Assembly (NCBI RefSeq): GCF_055900595.2
Contig: NZ_CM148325.1
Reading direction: 5' to 3' (one strand)
DNA length: 64,000 nucleotides
In this document: piece by piece, positions 15,831 to 57,604 of the stretch
Layout: each line of letters begins with the position of its first letter
Position numbering within the stretch: position 1 is the first letter of the stretch
Made by a program: the position numbers and the translations under genes
The notes under the pieces: generated by a model
Databases searched by the model: none
Told to the model about the DNA's origin: nothing
The model's input: the letters and a program-made list of their open reading frames with translations, nothing else

Positions 15831-15909
15831 CCGGAAAGCGGTTCACAGATCTCGCTTCGAACCAGGCAGGCCTATTGACGCTGTTGTTTTTTCAACCTAA
15901 AGTAAAGGA

Positions 15910-16058
15910 ACAAGGGTAAGGGAGGATTTCTCCCCCCTCTGAATTGGTTGTTAATAAGCCTGGAAACTTACTAGTAACAACACAATCAGTATGATGACGA
16001 ACTTCATCATAACCCTTTCCTTCTATAAGGCCCCTTCTTCGGGAGGGGCTTTCCCGTT
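15910..16058 (+). ncRNA. sibD: Sib-family antisense antitoxin RNA (predicted), fully overlapping ibs copy 1
   Basis: Plus-strand promoter TTGACG(15875-80)-17nt-TAAAGT(15898-903); hairpin gcccct-tcttcggg-aggggc at 16029-16049 followed by T-rich tract. Ends approximate. Confidence 0.5.
15951..16010 (-). CDS. ibsD: Ibs-family type I toxin, 19 aa (MMKFVIILIVLLLVSFQAY)
   Basis: Minus-strand ATGATG at 16010, stop at 15951-15953; hydrophobic peptide matching the Ibs toxin pattern; symbol by position (ibsD/ibsE assignment uncertain). Confidence 0.7.
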   Translation of the reverse strand: MMKFVIILIVLLLVSFQAY

Positions 16059-16286
16059 TCAGCCCCTTGCTGACTCCCCGATTGTTGATGAGCGCCAGAC
16101 CCCGCGCAATGCTTTCCCAGAGGCAGTTTTGCCTTCCCCGAGCAGTCACGCAAAACGCTGCAACAGCCTGATCATTTGCAGTTTTTTGTGGAACACAGAT
16201 ATAAAAAATCCCCGGTTTTTTGGGCCAGGGATATGTGTTAATGAAACCTTCTTGACGCTGATTTTTTTTCAACCTAAAGTAAAGGA

Positions 16287-16434
16287 ACAAGGGTAAGGGA
16301 GGATTTCTCCCCCCTCTGAATGGCCGTTAATAAGCGTGGAAACTTATCAGTAACAGCACAATCAGTATGATGACGAACTTCATCATAACCCTTTCCTTAT
16401 GTAAGGCCCCTTCCTCGGGAGGGGCTTTCCCGTT
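16287..16434 (+). ncRNA. sibE: Sib-family antisense antitoxin RNA (predicted), copy 2
   Basis: Promoter TTGACG(16252-57)-17nt-TAAAGT(16275-80); terminator hairpin 16405-16425 + T tract. Ends approximate. Confidence 0.5.
16327..16386 (-). CDS. ibsE: Ibs-family type I toxin, 19 aa (MMKFVIILIVLLLISFHAY)
   Basis: Second repeat copy; minus-strand ATGATG at 16386, stop 16327-16329. Confidence 0.7.
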   Translation of the reverse strand: MMKFVIILIVLLLISFHAY

Positions 16435-19761: not shown

Positions 19762-19883
19762 TGTAGTTTCCCTGTACTGATAGGTGTTGAGTGCCATTGT
19801 AGTGCGATAAGGGTAAGTCATAAACCAGAATTATGTGAAGCTATGCGTTGCTGCCGCTAATCATTAGCGTTATAGTGAATCCG

Positions 19884-20134
19884 CTTATTCTCAGGGCGGG
19901 GCGAAATTCCCCACCGGCGGTAAATCAACTCAGTTGAAAGCCCGCGAGCGCTTTGGGTGCGAACTCAAAGGACAGCAGATCCGGTGTAATTCCGGGGCCG
20001 ACGGTTAGAGTCCGGATGGGAGAGAGTAACGATTCTGTCGGGCATGGACCCGCTCACGTTATTTTGGCTATATGCCGCCACTCCTAAGACTGCCCTGATT
20101 CTGGTAACCATAATTTTAGTGAGGTTTTTTTACC
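19884..20134 (+). promoter_or_regulatory. FMN riboswitch (RFN element) in ribB leader (sroG region)
   Basis: Conserved RFN aptamer motifs (ttctcagggcggggcgaaattcccc...ggacagcagatccggtgtaattccggggccgacggttagagtccggatgggagag); preceded by promoter TTGCTG(19848)-17-TATAGT(19871). Confidence 0.75.
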
Positions 20135-20820: not shown

Positions 20821-21528
20821 AAATATCCTCCGGCATAGCCGGAGGTTTTTCAAATGCGCCTGTAAGGCTCTGTTACCAGCCGCGCCCTAACAGGCGCATA
20901 CGATCTGACATTTGCATTCAACTTCGTTACTTACGGCCCGTAAACGGGCTGCCCGGATATGGAATCGATAACTGCTCCCCCATTTTATCCTCTTCAAGCT
21001 GGTGCTTTATGTAGTCCTGTATCTTCGCCGTGTTCTTACCCACCGTATCGACATAGTACCCTCGGCACCAGAACTCCCTGTTTCTGTATTTGAATTTCAA
21101 ATCCCCAAACTGCTCGTAAAGCATCAGACTGCTTTTCCCTTTCAGATATCCCATAAAGCCGGATACGCTCATTTTGGGTGGGATTTCCACAAGCATATGG
21201 ATATGATCTGCGCAGCACTCTGCTTCCAGAATCCGTACGCTTTTCCACTCACACAGCTTTCTCAAAATACTGCCTATCGCCCTACGCTTCTCTCCGTAAA
21301 ACGCCAGTCTTCGGTATTTCGGCGCAAAAACTATGTGATATTTACAGTTCCAGCGGGTGTGCGCTAAGCTCTTTTCGTCCCCCATTGGGACCCCCTTTTG
21401 ATTTCTTGTTTGACACTTGCAGTTGCCAGACCGCAAGGTGTTTTAACAAATCAAAAGGGGTTTTAATAACTGGCTCAAAGCTGAAAGCTTTCCGGAACCC
21501 CCAGCCTAGCTGGGGGTTTTCTGTGCAC
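20821..21528 (-). mobile_element. IS200 insertion sequence (~708 bp); ends inferred (+/-20 bp)
   Basis: 152-aa IS200 TnpA; left end (high coordinate) inferred from hairpins at 21495-21517 and 21391-21460, which match the recalled IS200 leader positions (nt 12-34 and 69-138). Confidence 0.65.
20927..21385 (-). CDS. tnpA: IS200 transposase TnpA (Y1/HUH)
   Basis: MGDEKSLAHTRWNCKYHIVFAPKYRR...HIHMLVEIPP...; 152 aa from second in-frame ATG. Confidence 0.9.
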   Translation of the reverse strand: MGDEKSLAHTRWNCKYHIVFAPKYRRLAFYGEKRRAIGSILRKLCEWKSVRILEAECCADHIHMLVEIPPKMSVSGFMGYLKGKSSLMLYEQFGDLKFKYRNREFWCRGYYVDTVGKNTAKIQDYIKHQLEEDKMGEQLSIPYPGSPFTGRK

Positions 21529-36562: not shown

Positions 36563-36899
36563 TGAAGAATCTTTACCGGAGTGTGAGTCAAATCACTCGC
36601 TATCAGTTTAAGTTAACGATGCCACAGGCGTAATGTTGTCCGCTCAGACTCTGACGGCACAGGATTTTGTCCTTCCACACAGAAACCGCCATTGGCGGTT
36701 TTCCGCTGCATAATCCTCAGGATTATGTCTATAGCAAAGAGTTGTATATAAAGGCACATTGGTGCCTTTATCGCCGTCGGAGCACGTCCGGCGGCGCTAT
36801 TCACGCTGATCTCCTGTGACTCGACGCGGCAGATAATGTAGTATCTCCGGCAATATTGCCCCTTTGAAGGCTGGCGAATAAGTTGAGGAATCAGAATTA

Positions 36900-41724: not shown

Positions 41725-43944
41725 ATGAGCTCTATCTCCCTGATCCAACCGGATCGCGACCTGTTCTCCTGGCCGCAGTACTGGGCCGCCTGTTTTGGAC
41801 CGGCACCGTTTTTGCCGATGTCTCGTGAAGAGATGGATCAACTTGGCTGGGATAGCTGCGACATCATTTTGGTTACTGGCGACGCGTATGTCGATCACCC
41901 CAGCTTTGGGATGGCGATTTGCGGTCGTATGCTTGAAGCGCAGGGCTTTCGTGTCGGGATCATCGCCCAGCCAGACTGGAGCAGCAAAGACGACTTTATG
42001 CGTCTGGGCAAACCGAATCTGTTTTTCGGCGTTACCGCAGGCAACATGGACTCGATGATCAACCGTTACACTGCCGATCGCCGTTTGCGTCATGACGATG
42101 CCTACACGCCAGATAACGTCGCGGGTAAGCGCCCGGATCGCGCCACCCTGGTTTATACCCAACGCTGTAAAGAGGCGTGGAAAGATGTGCCGGTGATCCT
42201 CGGCGGTATTGAGGCTAGTTTGCGTCGTACCGCGCATTATGATTACTGGTCTGATACCGTGCGCCGTTCCGTGCTGGTGGATTCCAAAGCCGACATGCTG
42301 ATGTTCGGTAACGGTGAGCGTCCGCTGGTGGAAGTGGCGCATCGTCTGGCGATGGGTGAGCCGATTAGTGAAATCCGCGATGTGCGTAATACCGCGATTA
42401 TCGTAAAAGAGGCGTTGCCAGGCTGGAGCGGTGTGGATTCCACCCGTCTTGATACTCCTGGGAAAATCGACCCGATCCCGCATCCGTATGGTGAAGATTT
42501 GCCGTGCGCGGATAACAAACCGGTGGCCCCGAAAAAGCAGGAAGCGAAAGCCGTAACCGTGCAGCCACCGCGCCCGAAACCGTGGGAAAAAACTTACGTA
42601 TTGCTGCCTTCTTTCGAGAAAGTGAAGGGCGATAAAGTGCTGTACGCTCATGCTTCGCGTATTCTGCACCATGAAACCAACCCAGGCTGCGCGCGTGCGC
42701 TGATGCAAAAACATGGCGACCGCTATGTATGGATCAACCCGCCTGCCATCCCGCTTTCTACCGAAGAGATGGACAGCGTCTTTGCGCTGCCGTACAAGCG
42801 CGTGCCGCATCCGGCTTACGGTAATGCCCGAATTCCGGCTTACGAAATGATCCGTTTCTCTGTCAACATTATGCGCGGCTGCTTTGGCGGCTGCTCTTTC
42901 TGCTCTATTACCGAGCATGAAGGTCGCATTATTCAGAGCCGTTCGGAAGATTCGATCATCAACGAGATTGAAGCGATCCGCGACACCGTGCCAGGCTTTA
43001 CGGGCGTGATTTCCGATCTCGGTGGGCCAACTGCCAACATGTATATGTTGCGCTGCAAATCGCCGCGCGCCGAGCAGACTTGCCGCCGTTTATCGTGCGT
43101 TTACCCGGATATTTGTCCTCATATGGACACTAACCACGAACCGACGATCAACCTCTATCGCCGCGCGCGTGATCTGAAAGGCATTAAAAAGATCCTCATC
43201 GCTTCCGGCGTGCGTTATGACATCGCCGTGGAAGATCCGCGCTATATCAAAGAGCTGGCGACCCATCACGTTGGCGGTTATCTGAAGATTGCCCCGGAAC
43301 ATACCGAAGAAGGGCCGTTGTCGAAGATGATGAAGCCGGGCATGGGCAGCTATGACCGCTTTAAAGAGCTGTTCGATACCTACTCGAAACAGGCAGGTAA
43401 AGAGCAATATCTGATCCCGTATTTCATCTCGGCACACCCCGGTACGCGTGATGAAGATATGGTGAATCTGGCGCTGTGGCTGAAAAAGCATCGCTTCCGT
43501 CTCGACCAGGTACAGAACTTCTACCCGTCGCCGTTGGCTAACTCCACCACCATGTATTACACCGGGAAAAACCCGCTGGCGAAGATCGGTTACAAGAGTG
43601 AAGACGTCTTCGTACCGAAGGGCGACAAACAGCGTCGTTTGCATAAAGCGTTGTTGCGTTACCACGATCCGGCAAACTGGCCGTTAATCCGTCAGGCGCT
43701 GGAAGCGATGGGTAAAAAGCATCTGATTGGCAGCCGTCGTGATTGCTTAGTGCCTGCGCCAACCATTGAAGAGATGCGCGAAGCCCGCCGTCAGAACCGC
43801 AATACCCGTCCGGCGTTGACTAAACATACGCCGATGGCGACCCAGCGTCAGACGCCTGCTACGGCAAAAAAAGCGTCGTCTACGCCATCTCGCCCGGTGA
43901 ATGCTGGTGCAAAGAAACGGCCTAAAGCGGCGGTTGGTCGTTAA
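41725..43944 (+). CDS. ygiQ: radical SAM protein YgiQ (UPF0313)
   Basis: 739-aa ORF with CxxxCxxC-like radical SAM cluster (CFGGCSFCS) and basic C-terminal tail. Confidence 0.88.
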
Positions 43945-43982
43945 GTGAAATGTGCCCGGCAGCAATGATACTGCCGGGAAAT

Positions 43983-44213
43983 TTATAACCTTGGTTTATA
44001 AGGACTGTTACGAACGTCTAAGCGGTAATGCGCTCTTGCTGTTTCGTCTTTAACTTGCTGAATTTCCGGACGCAGGGCGTCAATATCCTGTTGCAGTTGA
44101 TTAATTTTGTTATTCAATGCCTGAATATCATGTTCCAGGTGTTCAATTTTGGCATTGCTGGTACAGCCAACAAGATACAGCGCCAGCGGAATGGATAAGA
44201 TAAGTTTGTTCAT
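43983..44213 (-). CDS. Lpp-like coiled-coil lipoprotein (paralog of the adjacent gene)
   Basis: MNKLILSIPLALYLVGC lipobox then heptad-repeat segment (IEHLEHDIQALNNKINQLQQDIDALRPEIQQ); start chosen internal to the track ORF. Confidence 0.6.
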   Translation of the reverse strand: MNKLILSIPLALYLVGCTSNAKIEHLEHDIQALNNKINQLQQDIDALRPEIQQVKDETARAHYRLDVRNSPYKPRL

Positions 44214-44230
44214 TATGAATTCCAGAACCG

Positions 44231-44488
44231 TCATTCCGCATACATACGCAAGCAGCGCAGGCAATCAAAATAGTCCTGAGCATCAAGACGCGTATTGGCT
44301 CTGTTAGCTTCGGATTTTGCCGCATAGATTTGCGGGCGTAATGCTTTCATATCCTGCTCAAGCCGGGCGATTTTGGCATTTAATGTTTGCACATTGCTCG
44401 CCAGCTGATTGACCTTTTGCTCATTGACGCAGCCGCTGAGCAAGCAGGTTGCCAGAACAACAGCCCCCACGGTGAAAATCGTTTTCAT
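44231..44488 (-). CDS. yqhH: Lpp-like coiled-coil lipoprotein YqhH
   Basis: 85-aa [23 protein letters not shown]... lipobox plus heptad repeats ([29 protein letters not shown]). Confidence 0.72.
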
Positions 44489-44538
44489 ATAGTATTCCCT
44501 TTTATTTATTGTTCCGGCTAATTGTTATTTAATTCAGC

Positions 44539-45465
44539 TCATTGCTTTAATCTGGCGGCGGTTTTCACCTCAATCTGTTTAAGTAGGCTGCCGCTGTTCG
44601 GGCGGATAAAATCAGCGATTTCCCACTTACCTTCGCGCCGCTGTAAAACCAGTTCTTGCTCTTCGTTGTTGCCATTGGTCAGCGTAAAACGAACATGAAT
44701 GCGGGCGGAATCGGTGGTTTTCTCCAGGACACGGATTTCATCAACGCGTGAAAATAGCGACTCTTCGCCAAAACAGATCGGATTGTCGTAAATAAATTGC
44801 CGTTCTATTTGCATATCTTCATCGGGATTGTTGGCAGTCTTGAAGGTGGTTTTATAGAAGGCATTGACCGCCTGGCGGTAAGAGTCGGAAACCACCCACG
44901 TCCACGGCCAGCTATAATCAGCAATATGTTCAAAGAGTTCGGCAACAAAGGCTTCCGGCTGTTCTTTTTGCAACGAAGCTACAGCGGCCAGCGTTTTTTC
45001 ATTCTCGCTATTAACTGCTTGTAAGACGCTGCCATGATTGCTGACAATATCGTCAATGACCCAACGACCATTTTCCGCCACCATTTTCAGTGTCTGCGTG
45101 GTCTTTTCTTTATCGTCTTTAAAGATACGAAAGCGCACAACGGCATCGGCATGATCGGCGTCAGGTTGGGTTATCGCTACGCTTTCTAACACCAGATCGC
45201 CAAAATCCTGACAATCACAAACCGGATCATAATCCAGCCAGCCAATATTGCCCGGCAGCGTAAGATTGTCGTTCAGGGTAAGCGCCTGTTGAATACGCGC
45301 AGAAGTTATCGCTCGCTCTCCGGTTTCACCAAAATAAGGCGTACTGGCATCTGATTTATAGTTCTGATAAATCTGCCGGACTGTTTGTTCTACGGTCTGT
45401 GAAGGAGGCTGCGCGTGTACGGTAAAACTTGCCAGGGCTGCTAAAAACAGAAGTATTATTTTCAT
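44539..45465 (-). CDS. yqhG: DUF3828 periplasmic protein YqhG
   Basis: 308-aa ORF with signal peptide MKIILLFLAALASFTVHA. Confidence 0.8.
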   Translation of the reverse strand: MKIILLFLAALASFTVHAQPPSQTVEQTVRQIYQNYKSDASTPYFGETGERAITSARIQQALTLNDNLTLPGNIGWLDYDPVCDCQDFGDLVLESVAITQPDADHADAVVRFRIFKDDKEKTTQTLKMVAENGRWVIDDIVSNHGSVLQAVNSENEKTLAAVASLQKEQPEAFVAELFEHIADYSWPWTWVVSDSYRQAVNAFYKTTFKTANNPDEDMQIERQFIYDNPICFGEESLFSRVDEIRVLEKTTDSARIHVRFTLTNGNNEEQELVLQRREGKWEIADFIRPNSGSLLKQIEVKTAARLKQ

Positions 45466-45664
45466 CTGTTTTTCACCTCTCCGTTGCGTTTATCCCGGGT
45501 GTAGATGAATTGTTCCTTTAAGAGCTTCCTGCTCTGCATGATGATGTCCTTATATTTGGCATTCCTGAACAAGGAAGAGTAACAATGGGCAGGACGCGAG
45601 GGGAATAAATGATTTCTGAAAAGTCCGGTAGCGGAACATTACCGCCACCGGGAGAATTTGCGCG

Positions 45665-46492
45665 TTAGCCGCCGAACTGGTCGGGATCGGGGCCGAGGCG
45701 TTTGCCCTGGTCGAGTTTGGCAATTTCACCTAGCTCGTCTTTGTCGAGACGGAAATCCCAGACATCAAAGTTTTCGGCAATACGTGAAGGTGTTACCGAT
45801 TTCGGGATCACCACCAGGCCGTTATCCAGATGCCAGCGGATAACAATCTGCGCCGGGGTTTTGCCGTATTTATCTGCCAGATCGCGAATGACTTTCTGAT
45901 CGAAAACGCCTTTCCCACCTTGCGCTAATGGGCTCCAGGATTCGGTCTGGATTTTGTGTGTCGCGTTCCAGGCGTGAAGCTGGCGTTGCTGCATCAGCGG
46001 GTGGAGTTCAATCTGGTTTATCACCGGCGTCACGCCAGTTTCATCAATCAGGCGTTGCAGGTGGTGGATCTGGAAGTTGCACACGCCGATGCTTTTGATT
46101 AAGCCCTCTTTTTGCAATTCGATCATGCCCTTCCATGCTTCGACATAATGGTCAATAGCAGGAACGGGCCAGTGCATTAAGTAAAGGTCGACATAATCAA
46201 GCTGGAGTTTTTTCAGGCTGTCGAGCAGGGCTTCGCGGGGGCGCTTGTGGTCGTCGTTCCACAGTTTAGTGGTGATGAACAGTTCTTCTCTGTTAACTGA
46301 GGCATTTTTCAGGGCTTTGCCGACACCTTCTTCGTTCTTATAGGCCGCGGCGGTATCAATCGAGCGATAACCCACGTCTAACGCTTTTTGAATGGCAGTG
46401 ATTACTTCCTCATTACTTGCTTGCCAGACGCCCAGTCCCAACTGGGGCATGACATTGCCATCCTGTAGCTTAATAACGGTTGGATTAGCCAT
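45665..46492 (-). CDS. dkgA: aldo-keto reductase (2,5-diketo-D-gluconate reductase A / methylglyoxal reductase)
   Basis: 275-aa AKR ORF MANPTVIKLQDGNVMPQLGLGVWQ... Confidence 0.9.
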   Translation of the reverse strand: MANPTVIKLQDGNVMPQLGLGVWQASNEEVITAIQKALDVGYRSIDTAAAYKNEEGVGKALKNASVNREELFITTKLWNDDHKRPREALLDSLKKLQLDYVDLYLMHWPVPAIDHYVEAWKGMIELQKEGLIKSIGVCNFQIHHLQRLIDETGVTPVINQIELHPLMQQRQLHAWNATHKIQTESWSPLAQGGKGVFDQKVIRDLADKYGKTPAQIVIRWHLDNGLVVIPKSVTPSRIAENFDVWDFRLDKDELGEIAKLDQGKRLGPDPDQFGG

Positions 46493-46596
46493 ACGTTCCT
46501 CCTTTATATGAACTCACCGGAGCAGGCTCCGGTGAGGTGTTGTGAACTTAAGTCTGGACGAAATGCCCGAAAACGAAAGTTTGAGGCGTAAAAAGC

Positions 46597-55104: not shown

Positions 55105-55791
55105 GACCTCTCCTTTCCACCATTCAATTTCGAAACAATGTTTCCAGTTTAGCGATTTACCAGGGGGGATCCCGTAGCATCGCTCACAGTGTGACGAAAA
55201 ACTGGGCAAAAACACGTGCTTATGCTTTGCTTAAAAAAACACCAATTAAGGAGTGCAATGATGCCGCGTCTGACCGCTAAAGATTTCCCACAAGAGTTGC
55301 TGGATTACTACGACTATTACGCTCACGGGAAAATTTCGAAACGTGAGTTCCTCAACCTTGCGGCGAAGTATGCGGTGGGCGGGATGACGGCATTAGCGTT
55401 GTTTGATTTGCTCAAGCCAAATTATGCGCTGGCGACTCAGGTAGAGTTTACCGACCCGGAAATTGTTGCTGAGTACATCACGTATTCTTCGCCAAATGGT
55501 CACGGCGAGGTACGGGGTTATCTGGTGAAGCCCGCAAAGATGAGCGGCAAAACGCCAGCCGTGGTGGTGGTGCATGAGAATCGTGGACTGAATCCGTATA
55601 TCGAAGATGTGGCACGGCGAGTAGCGAAGGCGGGGTATATCGCCCTGGCACCTGACGGCTTAAGTTCCGTTGGAGGTTATCCGGGTAATGATGATAAAGG
55701 TCGTGAGCTGCAACAGCAGGTTGATCCAACCAAACTGATGAATGATTTCTTTGCCGCAATTGAGTTTATGCAACGCTATCCGCAAGCGACA

Positions 55792-55800
55792 GGCAAAGTG
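55792..55800. repeat. 9-bp target site duplication (GGCAAAGTG), left copy
   Basis: Identical 9-mer directly flanks both IS10 ends. Confidence 0.85.
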
Positions 55801-55813
55801 CTGAGAGATCCCC

Positions 55814-57022
55814 TCATAATTTCCCCAAAACGTAACCATGTGTGAATAGATTTTGAGTAAGCAGGGTTGCAGCCACGAGTGAGTCTTCCCTTGTTATTGT
55901 GTAGCCAGAATGCCGCAAAACTTCCATGCCTAAGCGAACTGTTGAGAGTACGTTTCGATTTCTGACTGTGTTAGCCTGGAAGTGCTTGTCCCAACCTTGT
56001 TTCTGAGCATGAACGCCCGCAAGCCAACATGTTAGTTGAAGCATCAGGGCGATTAGCAGCATGATATCAAAACGCTCTGAGCTGCTCGTTCGGCTATGGC
56101 GTAGGCCTAGTCCGTAGGCAGGACTTTTCAAGTCTCGGAAGGTTTCTTCAATCTGCATTCGCTTCGAATAGATATTAACAAGTTGTTTGGGTGTTCGAAT
56201 TTCAACAGGTAAGTTAGTTGCTAGAATCCATGGCTCCTTTGCCGACGCTGAGTAGATTTTAGGTGACGGGTGGTGACAATGAGTCCGTGTCGAGCGCTGA
56301 TTTTTTCGGCCTTTAGAGCGAGATTTATACAATAGAATTTGGCATGAGATTGGATTGCTTTTAGTCAGCCTCTTATAGCCTAAAGTCTTTGAGTGACTAG
56401 ATGACATATCATGTAAGTTGCTGATAGGTTTCCAGTTTTCCGCTCCTAGGTCTGCATATTGTACTTTTCCTCTTACTCGACTTAACCAGTACCAACCCAG
56501 CTTCTCAACGGATTTATACCATGGCACTTTAAAGCCAGCATCACTGACAATGAGCGGTGTGGTGTTACTCGGTAGAATGCTCGCAAGGTCGGCTAGAAAT
56601 TGGTCATGAGCTTTCTTTGAACATTGCTCTGAAAGCGGGAACGCTTTCTCATAAAGAGTAACAGAACGACCGTGTAGTGCGACTGAAGCTCGCAATACCA
56701 TAAGCCGTTTTTGCTCACGGATATCAGACCAGTCAACAAGTACAATGGGCATCGTATTGCCCGAACAGATAAAGCTAGCATGCCAACGGTATACAGCGAG
56801 TCGCTCTTTGTGGAGGTGACGATTACCTAACAATCGGTCGATTCGTTTGATGTTATGTTTTGTTCTCGCTTTGGTTGGCAGGTTACGGCCAAGTTCGGTA
56901 AGAGTGAGAGTTTTACAGTCAAGTAAGGCGTGGCAAGCCAACGTTAAGCTGTTGAGTCGTTTTAAGTGTAATTCGGGGCAGAATTGGTAAAGAGAGTCGT
57001 GTAAAATATCGAGTTCGCACAT
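55814..57022 (-). CDS. tnp: IS10 transposase (IS4 family, DDE)
   Basis: 402-aa ORF MCELDILHDSLYQFCPELHLKRLNSLTLACHALLDCKTLTLTELGRNLPTKARTKHNIKRIDRLLGN... Confidence 0.95.
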   Translation of the reverse strand: MCELDILHDSLYQFCPELHLKRLNSLTLACHALLDCKTLTLTELGRNLPTKARTKHNIKRIDRLLGNRHLHKERLAVYRWHASFICSGNTMPIVLVDWSDIREQKRLMVLRASVALHGRSVTLYEKAFPLSEQCSKKAHDQFLADLASILPSNTTPLIVSDAGFKVPWYKSVEKLGWYWLSRVRGKVQYADLGAENWKPISNLHDMSSSHSKTLGYKRLTKSNPISCQILLYKSRSKGRKNQRSTRTHCHHPSPKIYSASAKEPWILATNLPVEIRTPKQLVNIYSKRMQIEETFRDLKSPAYGLGLRHSRTSSSERFDIMLLIALMLQLTCWLAGVHAQKQGWDKHFQANTVRNRNVLSTVRLGMEVLRHSGYTITREDSLVAATLLTQNLFTHGYVLGKL

Positions 57023-57083
57023 TTTGTTGTCTGATTATTGATTTTTGGCGAAACCATTTGATCATATGACAAGATGTGTATCC
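57015..57083 (+). ncRNA. IS10 RNA-OUT antisense RNA (predicted from IS10 coordinates)
   Basis: Corresponds to IS10 bp 115-47; sequence tcgcacattttgttgtctgattattgatttttggcgaaaccatttgatcatatgacaagatgtgtatcc is antisense to the transposase start; GATC (dam) site in the pIN -10 region. Confidence 0.5.
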
Positions 57084-57129
57084 ACCTTAACTTAATGATT
57101 TTTACCAAAATCATTAGGGGATTCATCAG

Positions 57130-57138
57130 GGCAAAGTG
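57130..57138. repeat. 9-bp target site duplication (GGCAAAGTG), right copy
   Basis: Identical to 55792-55800. Confidence 0.85.
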
Positions 57139-57604
57139 GGTATTACCGGATTTTGCTATGGCGGTGGTGTATCGAACGCGGCGGCTGTCGCGTATCCGGA
57201 ACTGGCCTGCGCGGTGCCGTTTTATGGTCGTCAGGCACCCACTGCCGATGTGGCGAAGATTGAAGCGCCTTTACTGCTCCACTACGCGGAACTGGATACC
57301 CGAATCAACGAGGGCTGGCCCGCTTACGAGGCGGCGTTGAAAGCCAATAATAAGGTCTATGAGGCGTATATCTATCCGGGGGTTAATCACGGATTCCATA
57401 ATGATTCCACGCCCCGTTATGACAAATCTGCCGCCGATCTTGCCTGGCAAAGGACGCTGAAATGGTTCGATAAATATCTCTCCTGATAGGTTTATCTCTT
57501 ACGGGATTACGTCTTAAACAAGCATGAAAAAATAGCGTGCGCAAAAGTCGTTCTTTGCCTAAAATATCGCTATATATGACAATATATAGCGAATGAGGTG
57601 AACG

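Follow-up and report, generated by a model that had tools for sequence, protein, structure and literature searches.

An Lpp-family lipoprotein gene between yqhH and ygiQ in Escherichia coli cryptic clade I

We analyzed the locus at 43983–44488 in a stretch of 64,000 nt (the window) taken from contig NZ_CM148325.1 of RefSeq assembly GCF_055900595.2. The minus strand carries yqhG (44539–45465), yqhH (44231–44488) and a second Lpp-family gene (43983–44213), which we call type C. According to its ORF and annotation, yqhG is the first gene of the yqhG–yqhH unit and encodes a 308-aa secreted protein of the DUF3828/YbjP–YqhG family; yqhH encodes an 85-aa Lpp paralog, and the type C ORF encodes a 76-aa precursor. 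The two adjoining minus-strand genes proposed in the earlier note are thus both found. Their junction (44214–44234, minus strand) holds a 17-bp spacer at 44214–44230. On the other side of the type C gene, a G+C-rich hairpin at 43955–43978, with a 10-bp stem CCCGGCAGUA/UGCUGCCGGG, separates it from the convergent gene ygiQ (41725–43944, plus strand), which encodes a radical SAM protein and provides the conserved anchor for placing the Salmonella gene described below. The hairpin has a fold energy of -19.5 kcal/mol (z -4.9); its T tract is weak, and the consensus terminator scan did not flag it. In an alignment of K-12, E1V33, E. albertii and Salmonella, the equivalent hairpin of K-12 lies directly 3′ of yqhH, so the type C gene falls inside the transcription unit. 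The distance from the yqhH stop to the ygiQ stop is 42 bp in K-12 and 286 bp in the window, which agrees with the statement, made with some doubt in the earlier note, that K-12 has yqhH alone at this position. Some recent RefSeq records label yqhG 'YqhG/Tai3 family protein', Tai3 being a type VI amidase immunity protein. The NCBIfam scan did not reproduce this label for YqhG and gave only a borderline match to Rv0361_Cterm (38.5 bits, cut-off 37).

The gene at 44231–44488 (minus strand) is yqhH, and its protein is identical to that of K-12. The product matches the NCBIfam equivalog NF007428 'lipoprotein YqhH' with 197.7 bits against a cut-off of 120, and the RefSeq protein WP_000848528.1 is common to K-12 and a 100%-matching strain. 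YqhH also matches the Pfam family PF04728 (LPP) with 47.9 bits (gathering score 29.1). Its lipobox is LLSGC (L-S-G-C, with Cys20), and its C-terminus reads ...CLRMYAE, which contains no Lys. The tail of YqhH is longer than that of type C and has two Cys residues. YqhH has been judged unable to crosslink (bioRxiv 10.1101/2025.11.13.688167).

The type C CDS is already annotated in RefSeq by its domain name (WP_001037462.1, 'LPP leucine zipper domain-containing protein'), and our literature search found no study or mention of this protein. On sequence grounds, it is a third kind of Lpp-family lipoprotein. The 76-aa precursor has the sequence MNKLILSIPLALYLVGCTSNAKIEHLEHDIQALNNKINQLQQDIDALRPEIQQVKDETARAHYRLDVRNSPYKPRL. 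Codons 1–16 (44166–44213, minus strand) encode the predicted signal peptide, in which a short, positively charged n-region (MNK) precedes 12 hydrophobic core residues and the lipobox (YLVGC). The sequence reads MNKLILSIPLALYLVG-C, an assignment made from the residues themselves, and the Cys17 codon of the lipobox L-V-G-C lies at 44163–44165. The mature protein of 60 aa is encoded at 43986–44165, and the stop codon is at 43983–43985, all on the minus strand. Among the ten alleles from clade I DNA, the lipobox is L-V-G-C or L-A-G-C in all ten, L-A-G-C being the commonest; rare database alleles have a Cys-to-Gly lipobox (one variant) or a truncated start. The motif ALRP(E/Q)I can be read in both YqhH and type C, and both proteins lack a C-terminal Lys (...CLRMYAE and ...SPYKPRL), as had been proposed. 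The same is true of the signal peptide, lipobox Cys (LLSGC and YLVGC) and heptad coiled coil attributed to each gene, both products scoring above the Pfam LPP threshold.

To place type C within the family, we compared its scores against several profiles. Type C matches PF04728 with 42.1 bits (gathering score 29.1) and is therefore a member of the Lpp family. It falls below the cut-offs of NF011925 'major outer membrane lipoprotein' (68.9 bits, cut-off 108) and of the YqhH equivalog NF007428 (51.9 bits, cut-off 120), and thus it is an ortholog of neither Lpp nor YqhH. The score against NF040598 (Lpp/OprI alanine-zipper lipoproteins) is also below the cut-off (34.7 bits, cut-off 43). Apart from the lipidated Cys1, the mature chain is free of Cys, and it does not end in Lys; both traits set it apart from LppB-like proteins, and its C-terminus, ...S-P-Y-K-P-R-L, does not carry the Lpp box ...Y-R-K. 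The pairwise alignments suggested in the earlier note give 45% identity between YqhH and type C (56 residues, 53.9 bits, E 2e-16), 45% between Lpp and type C (74 residues, 71.6 bits) and 51% between Lpp and YqhH (67 residues, 73.6 bits). Type C aligns without gaps to 54–57 residues of the mature Lpp chains 9RLD and 1EQ7 (E ~4e-13 to 4e-12). Its a/d core (mature positions 7, 10, 14 ... 49) reads I-L-I-L-I-L-I-L-I-V-T-A-L, in the same register as Lpp and YqhH; the Lpp core reads I-L-V-L-V-L-V-M-V-A-A-A-L, with no indels between the two. The AlphaFold2 model, a monomer that carries no information on the oligomeric state, shows one helix spanning residues 7–68. The mean pLDDT of the 10-residue blocks is 87–96 across residues 21–60, Pro49 included, and the C-terminal 8-residue tail, at the protein end ...RNSPYKPRL, is unstructured.

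Further members of the family were also seen. A type C variant on an ENA metagenome contig of 567 nt (P0002) lacks exactly 14 residues (NKINQLQQDIDALR), which corresponds to two heptads; the phase of the coiled coil would stay, and the rod would be shorter. Large phages of Salmonella, Cronobacter and Erwinia carry Lpp homologs with 36–40% identity to type C (e.g. GU070616.1 70143–70376 and MT920315.1 134747–134977).

The type C start is assigned to the ATG at 44213, 17 bp 3′ of the yqhH stop, where a weak GGA lies 9–11 nt before the ATG. An alternative in-frame ATG at 44232–44234 overlaps the yqhH TGA as ATGA; it would give an 83-aa precursor with the same mature protein, and this form is chosen by some annotation pipelines. 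In Salmonella, a strong AAGGAAG precedes the ortholog, whose start is the equivalent MNK codon, and thus we take 44213 as the homologous start. The arrangement suggests that translation of type C is probably coupled to that of yqhH. A consensus scan of 43800–45800 found no sigma-70-like promoter. In K-12, the yqhGH unit is reported to be activated by BglJ–RcsB and repressed by H-NS (PMC3950696). Given the promoter scan and this repression, the type C protein may be rarely made.

We then examined the gene content of the locus across E. coli, as the earlier note had advised. The yqhH half of the locus has a match in 5,415 of 5,426 complete E. coli genomes, and the 286-bp second half, containing type C, in 18. 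Type C is annotated as an intact CDS in every one of these 18 genomes. Both across the 3.7-kb locus and in each of the two flanking segments compared (3.5 kb each), these 18 genomes are the nearest neighbors of the window, which is 96–98% identical to K-12 over its whole length. Type C thus marks a deep lineage and not a local island, and divergence limited to this locus is ruled out. No genome among the 5,426 has clade-I-like flanks without the type C gene. Published work places seven of the 18 carrier strains in Escherichia cryptic clade I or calls them 'Cryptic'. Cryptic clade I includes EC42405 and 2013C-4282 (PMC10100065); the other five, all ST485, are listed in PMC13064198, four of them (E400634, E500002, E600003 and E200086) as 'Cryptic I' and one (100117) as 'Cryptic'. 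The source genome of the window belongs to E. coli cryptic clade I. Within E. coli, type C survives only in this clade, and K-12 and the rest have a short, gene-less junction. The 244-bp presence/absence difference is therefore a compact marker by which clade I can be told from all other complete E. coli genomes in the collection. In a large protein collection, the 90% cluster of type C contains 31 sequence variants on hundreds of contigs, all named Escherichia, and a word-indexed protein search with type C returned only its own two 90% clusters. On one clade-I-like contig (L003, 7626–9986), which carries the L47M allele of type C, two extra genes of 230 and 474 aa lie between ygiQ and ftsP; they have no Pfam match and are missing from the window and from K-12.

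Relatives of type C are few. Across 1.84 billion representatives, an exhaustive HMMER profile search recovered only 56, and the closest outside its own cluster is a 64-aa Salmonella enterica protein with 66% identity. A positional ortholog beside ygiQ is present in some Salmonella enterica. In two Salmonella loci (L005 and L023), it is flanked by an 82-aa LPP gene on one side and by ygiQ on the other, and the hairpin is the same. A frameshift gave rise to the 64-aa form, in which the shifted frame reads ...KDEAARANYRIDDRNSPFSPRL. An 81-aa form is intact, but a 5-residue AAKDE duplication breaks its heptad phase. Both forms are rare, on 2–3 contigs each. The Salmonella ortholog ends ...NSPFSPRL, with Ser at the position of Lys57 and P-R-L kept. 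Between clade I and Salmonella, the nucleotide identity is 77% for type C and 85% for ygiQ, the dS values are 0.84 and 1.15, and the dN/dS values are 0.21 (0.20 for the mature part) and 0.023, respectively. The GC content of type C is 41%, compared with 51.5% for the window. The identity, dS and dN/dS values fit an ortholog that would be older than the Escherichia–Salmonella split and under purifying, though relaxed, selection. A chance ORF at 43983–44213 is ruled out by the 18 intact CDSs in 18 carriers, the hundreds of contigs and the Salmonella positional ortholog. The earlier note had made its claim depend on the conservation and lipobox of this ORF, and both are present.

The Salmonella gene also bears on how the pair arose. 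A recent tandem duplication of yqhH in this lineage would place two genes of one family next to each other on the same strand with a common ALRP motif, as is seen. However, identity between the two proteins is only 45%, and at the DNA level the type C segment gave no match to yqhH, in a search that returned only the 18 loci. Type C is no closer to YqhH than to Lpp (the identity is the same and the bit score is lower), and the Salmonella ortholog is already separate from the YqhH-like gene. This origin is hardly credible, and the Salmonella ortholog beside ygiQ rules it out. Judged by these comparisons, type C is an old paralog and no recent copy of yqhH. The description 'tandem pair of paralogs' thus holds for adjoining genes of the Lpp family on one strand, but it does not extend to a recent duplication, given the equal identity of type C to YqhH and Lpp and the ortholog in Salmonella.

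Variation within clade I raises a further question about the age of the segment. Ten clade I haplotypes have four segregating sites in the 286-bp type C segment, compared with 37 in 464 flanking bp (Fisher p 5e-5). The type C CDS shows zero synonymous differences among its ten clade I alleles. Three amino-acid variants were seen, two in the signal peptide (Y13C and V15A) and one, L47M, in the mature protein, which thus varies at a single residue. The neighboring genes have pS values of 0.15 (yqhH, 17 bp away) and 0.09 (ygiQ). There are two possible readings. First, the flanks may be mosaics of ordinary E. coli imports, whose donors lack the segment and cannot diversify it. Second, the segment may have entered or swept clade I after the flanks diverged. 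K-12, E1V33 and E. albertii have a common short junction, composed of the yqhH TGA, TAAAAA and the hairpin, so recent entry is conceivable. A specific form of the second reading is that Escherichia lost type C once, early, and that recombination with an unsampled relative later returned the 244-bp segment to clade I. The common short junction, the low GC content of type C and the scarcity of segregating sites, none of them synonymous in the CDS, all point this way. However, nothing closer than the Salmonella ortholog (66–70% identity) was found in the 1.84 billion representatives, and searches of plasmid and phage collections gave only Lpp, YqhH and phage Lpp homologs of ≤45% identity, with no type C copy and no sign of a mobile vector. 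The dS of type C is of the same order as that of ygiQ, as expected of vertical descent, and the low diversity is otherwise explained if imports from E. coli sensu stricto diversify the flanks and not a segment that these donors lack. We therefore regard re-acquisition as unlikely, though a serious alternative to continuous descent.

The yqhH alleles of clade I (window 44231–44488; loci L012–L019 and L003) fall into two classes that are ~7% apart in DNA, with 92.6% and 97–99% identity to K-12, and their proteins are the same or nearly so. Their pN is 0.003 beside the pS given above, pointing to mosaicism by recombination together with strong purifying selection.

Type C is not the only additional Lpp paralog in the interval beside ygiQ. 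In Salmonella, the stretch from dkgA to ygiQ contains three LPP genes, namely a YqhH-like gene, an 82-aa gene with a product ending ..CYHPRL and, sometimes, type C. In E. albertii (L010, 3228–3476) and Escherichia sp. E1V33 (L009, 3959–4207), a different 82-aa LPP paralog, ending WP[DN]G..PPR[WY], lies between yqhG and yqhH, and protein names indicate that E. ruysiae and E. whittamii have this paralog as well. The upstream paralog of E. albertii and E1V33 came to light in a scan of GTDB representative genomes with one narrow peptide pattern, derived from an alignment of LRP-type paralogs, which gave three loci, none of them type C. No gene 3′ of yqhH was found in the Escherichia species with the upstream 82-aa paralog. 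The 82-aa paralogs of E. albertii, E. ruysiae, E. whittamii and Salmonella resemble type C in their family and in their position in the yqhG/dkgA–ygiQ interval, and like type C they carry the LR(P/Q) motif, end in Pro-Arg-hydrophobic at the C-terminus and lack a terminal Lys. They differ from type C in their low identity (41–44%), in their position upstream and not downstream of yqhH, and in a longer Trp/Pro-rich tail. Since the paralog sets differ between Salmonella and the Escherichia species, Lpp paralogs without a terminal Lys have a small birth-and-death locus in the interval next to ygiQ.

Two side observations concern these loci. In Salmonella enterica, the lipobox Cys of the YqhH-like gene (L020–L022, 3001–3234) is replaced by Arg (LLSGRVNE), and the product is probably no longer a lipoprotein. 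The E. albertii locus has additional ORFs of 227 and 137 aa with no family match, and the larger of the two is similar to an ORF of 244 aa located before the 82-aa LPP gene in Salmonella.

Taken together, 43983–44213 (minus strand) is a real, intact Lpp-family gene and an old paralog, and we consider it probable that its product forms a permanently free, outer-membrane-anchored, Lpp-like rod. The precursor would be lipidated at Cys17 and then cut by signal peptidase II. Under the Lol sorting rule, Asp at +2 keeps a lipoprotein in the inner membrane; type C has Thr at +2 and Ser at +3 and thus no Asp retention signal, so it would be sorted to the outer membrane by Lol. From that membrane, the 60-residue chain would then hang as a coiled coil like that of Lpp. 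Lpp is attached to peptidoglycan through its C-terminal Lys by the L,D-transpeptidases (LdtA/B/C). Since type C ends Y-K-P-R-L, with no terminal Lys, these enzymes are predicted to be unable to link it to peptidoglycan, and covalent tethering is unlikely. In Lpp, loss of the terminal Lys lowers the attachment ~50-fold (PMC12274547).

A covalent tether could still be envisaged through Lys57, either directly or after trimming of P-R-L to expose ...S-P-Y-K. Tyr56-Lys57 of type C aligns with Tyr56-Arg57 of Lpp, and the penultimate Lys of Dickeya OutB takes over once it is C-terminal (PMC12274547). However, the Salmonella ortholog has Ser at position 57 and conserves P-R-L, and the internal Lys55 did not rescue Lpp without Lys58, the loss being ~50-fold (PMC12274547). 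No trimming protease is known for the Lpp family, which also weighs against such a tether. Crosslinking through Lys57 is very improbable, and we reject it because Lys57 is not conserved in Salmonella.

The free rod remains our preferred reading, and YqhH and type C, neither with a terminal Lys, may have a different envelope role, as the earlier note had suggested. In Salmonella, LppB–Lpp heterotrimers lower crosslinking, and the same has been suggested for YqhH (bioRxiv 10.1101/2025.11.13.688167). Since the core register of type C is the same as that of Lpp and YqhH, mixed trimers are possible; by analogy, and as speculation, type C may enter mixed trimers with YqhH or Lpp and would thereby cut the number of covalent tethers. 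The mid-helix Pro (LRP) and the C-terminal P-R-L of type C are conserved and have no counterpart in Lpp, and they may reflect a different partner or mode of action. A similar tail ending recurs in the neighboring paralogs as HPRL or PPR[WY]. It is conceivable, though we would put little weight on it, that type C, the 82-aa paralogs and YqhH make up a distinct branch of the Lpp family, with a helix LR[P/Q] motif, a non-Lys tail and, outside YqhH, the Pro-Arg-hydrophobic ending. Its members would be gained and lost by lineage beside ygiQ and, as non-covalent or dominant-negative subunits, would control the tightness of outer-membrane tethering. If so, clade I would have an envelope-tuning component that is missing from ordinary E. 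coli.

Whatever its role, it is dispensable, since type C is lost in nearly all Escherichia and frameshifted or duplicated internally in Salmonella. The gene could then be a decaying relic, open in clade I but unexpressed or without a role and heading for the deletion that is fixed elsewhere. Of the 5,426 complete E. coli genomes, 5,408 lack it, as do the genomes representing other Escherichia species, and the rare Salmonella copies (2–3 contigs each) are frameshifted or have the non-heptad duplication. The weak Shine–Dalgarno, the GC content below that of the window and the rare alleles with a Cys-to-Gly lipobox or a truncated start are in line with such decay. On the other side, each of the 18 clade I genomes has the gene intact, it recurs on hundreds of contigs, dN/dS against Salmonella is low over the whole gene and its mature part, and only one mature residue varies among the ten clade I alleles. 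We find the relic reading rather improbable.

Comparison with the known members places the free-rod reading in context. No E. coli protein is more abundant than Lpp, and nothing else joins the outer membrane covalently to the cell wall. Type C shares with Lpp (Braun's lipoprotein; 1EQ7 and 9RLD) the signal peptide, the lipobox, the PF04728 domain and the a/d register, and the mature lengths are close (60 residues in type C and 58 in Lpp). It differs from Lpp in ending Y-K-P-R-L and not Y-R-K, in having Pro of the LRP motif in place of Lpp Ser33, in sitting at the yqhH locus and not the lpp locus, and in being confined to one clade. With YqhH, type C shares the operon, strand, family and LRP motif, and neither has a terminal Lys, both being presumed uncrosslinked; however, the identity is only 45%, the YqhH tail is longer with two Cys, and YqhH is found in 5,415 genomes compared with 18 for type C. 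A comparable tandem arrangement exists in Salmonella, where LppB is an additional member of the Lpp family next to its relative LppA. Unlike type C, LppB keeps the terminal Lys, has a redox-active Cys and sits at the lpp locus. The role proposed for LppB, less covalent tethering through mixed trimers (bioRxiv 10.1101/2025.11.13.688167), would apply to type C by analogy only.

Recent work suggests that mixed trimers are a means by which Lpp paralogs (LppB, for instance, and perhaps YqhH) adjust the link between the outer membrane and the wall. Type C provides a natural presence/absence variant for testing the effect of non-crosslinkable Lpp paralogs on the envelope, in a clade from which Shiga-toxin and enterotoxin producers are reported to be emerging. 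Nothing is overturned by these results; the family, fold and likely location of type C are as expected.

Lastly, some features elsewhere in the window were recorded. An IS10 copy at 55814–57130, with a 402-aa transposase (55814–57022, minus strand) and an Rfam RNA-OUT match (57015–57084), splits a yghX-like dienelactone-hydrolase ORF into halves at 55216–55845 and 57136–57486. The yghX gene of K-12 has no insertion, but it is frameshifted. The ygiS–mqsA–mqsR block of K-12 (~2.5 kb), which includes the MqsRA toxin–antitoxin pair, is missing from the window, and 128 unrelated bases at 36564–36692 replace it between the ygiV-side and parC-side sequences. Rfam matches at the gathering score, located at 15875–16401, 19883–20031, 21395–21518 and 46531–46594, comprise two tandem SIB antitoxin RNAs, an FMN riboswitch, STnc490 and the ES173 sRNA, each of them expected in this E. 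coli region.
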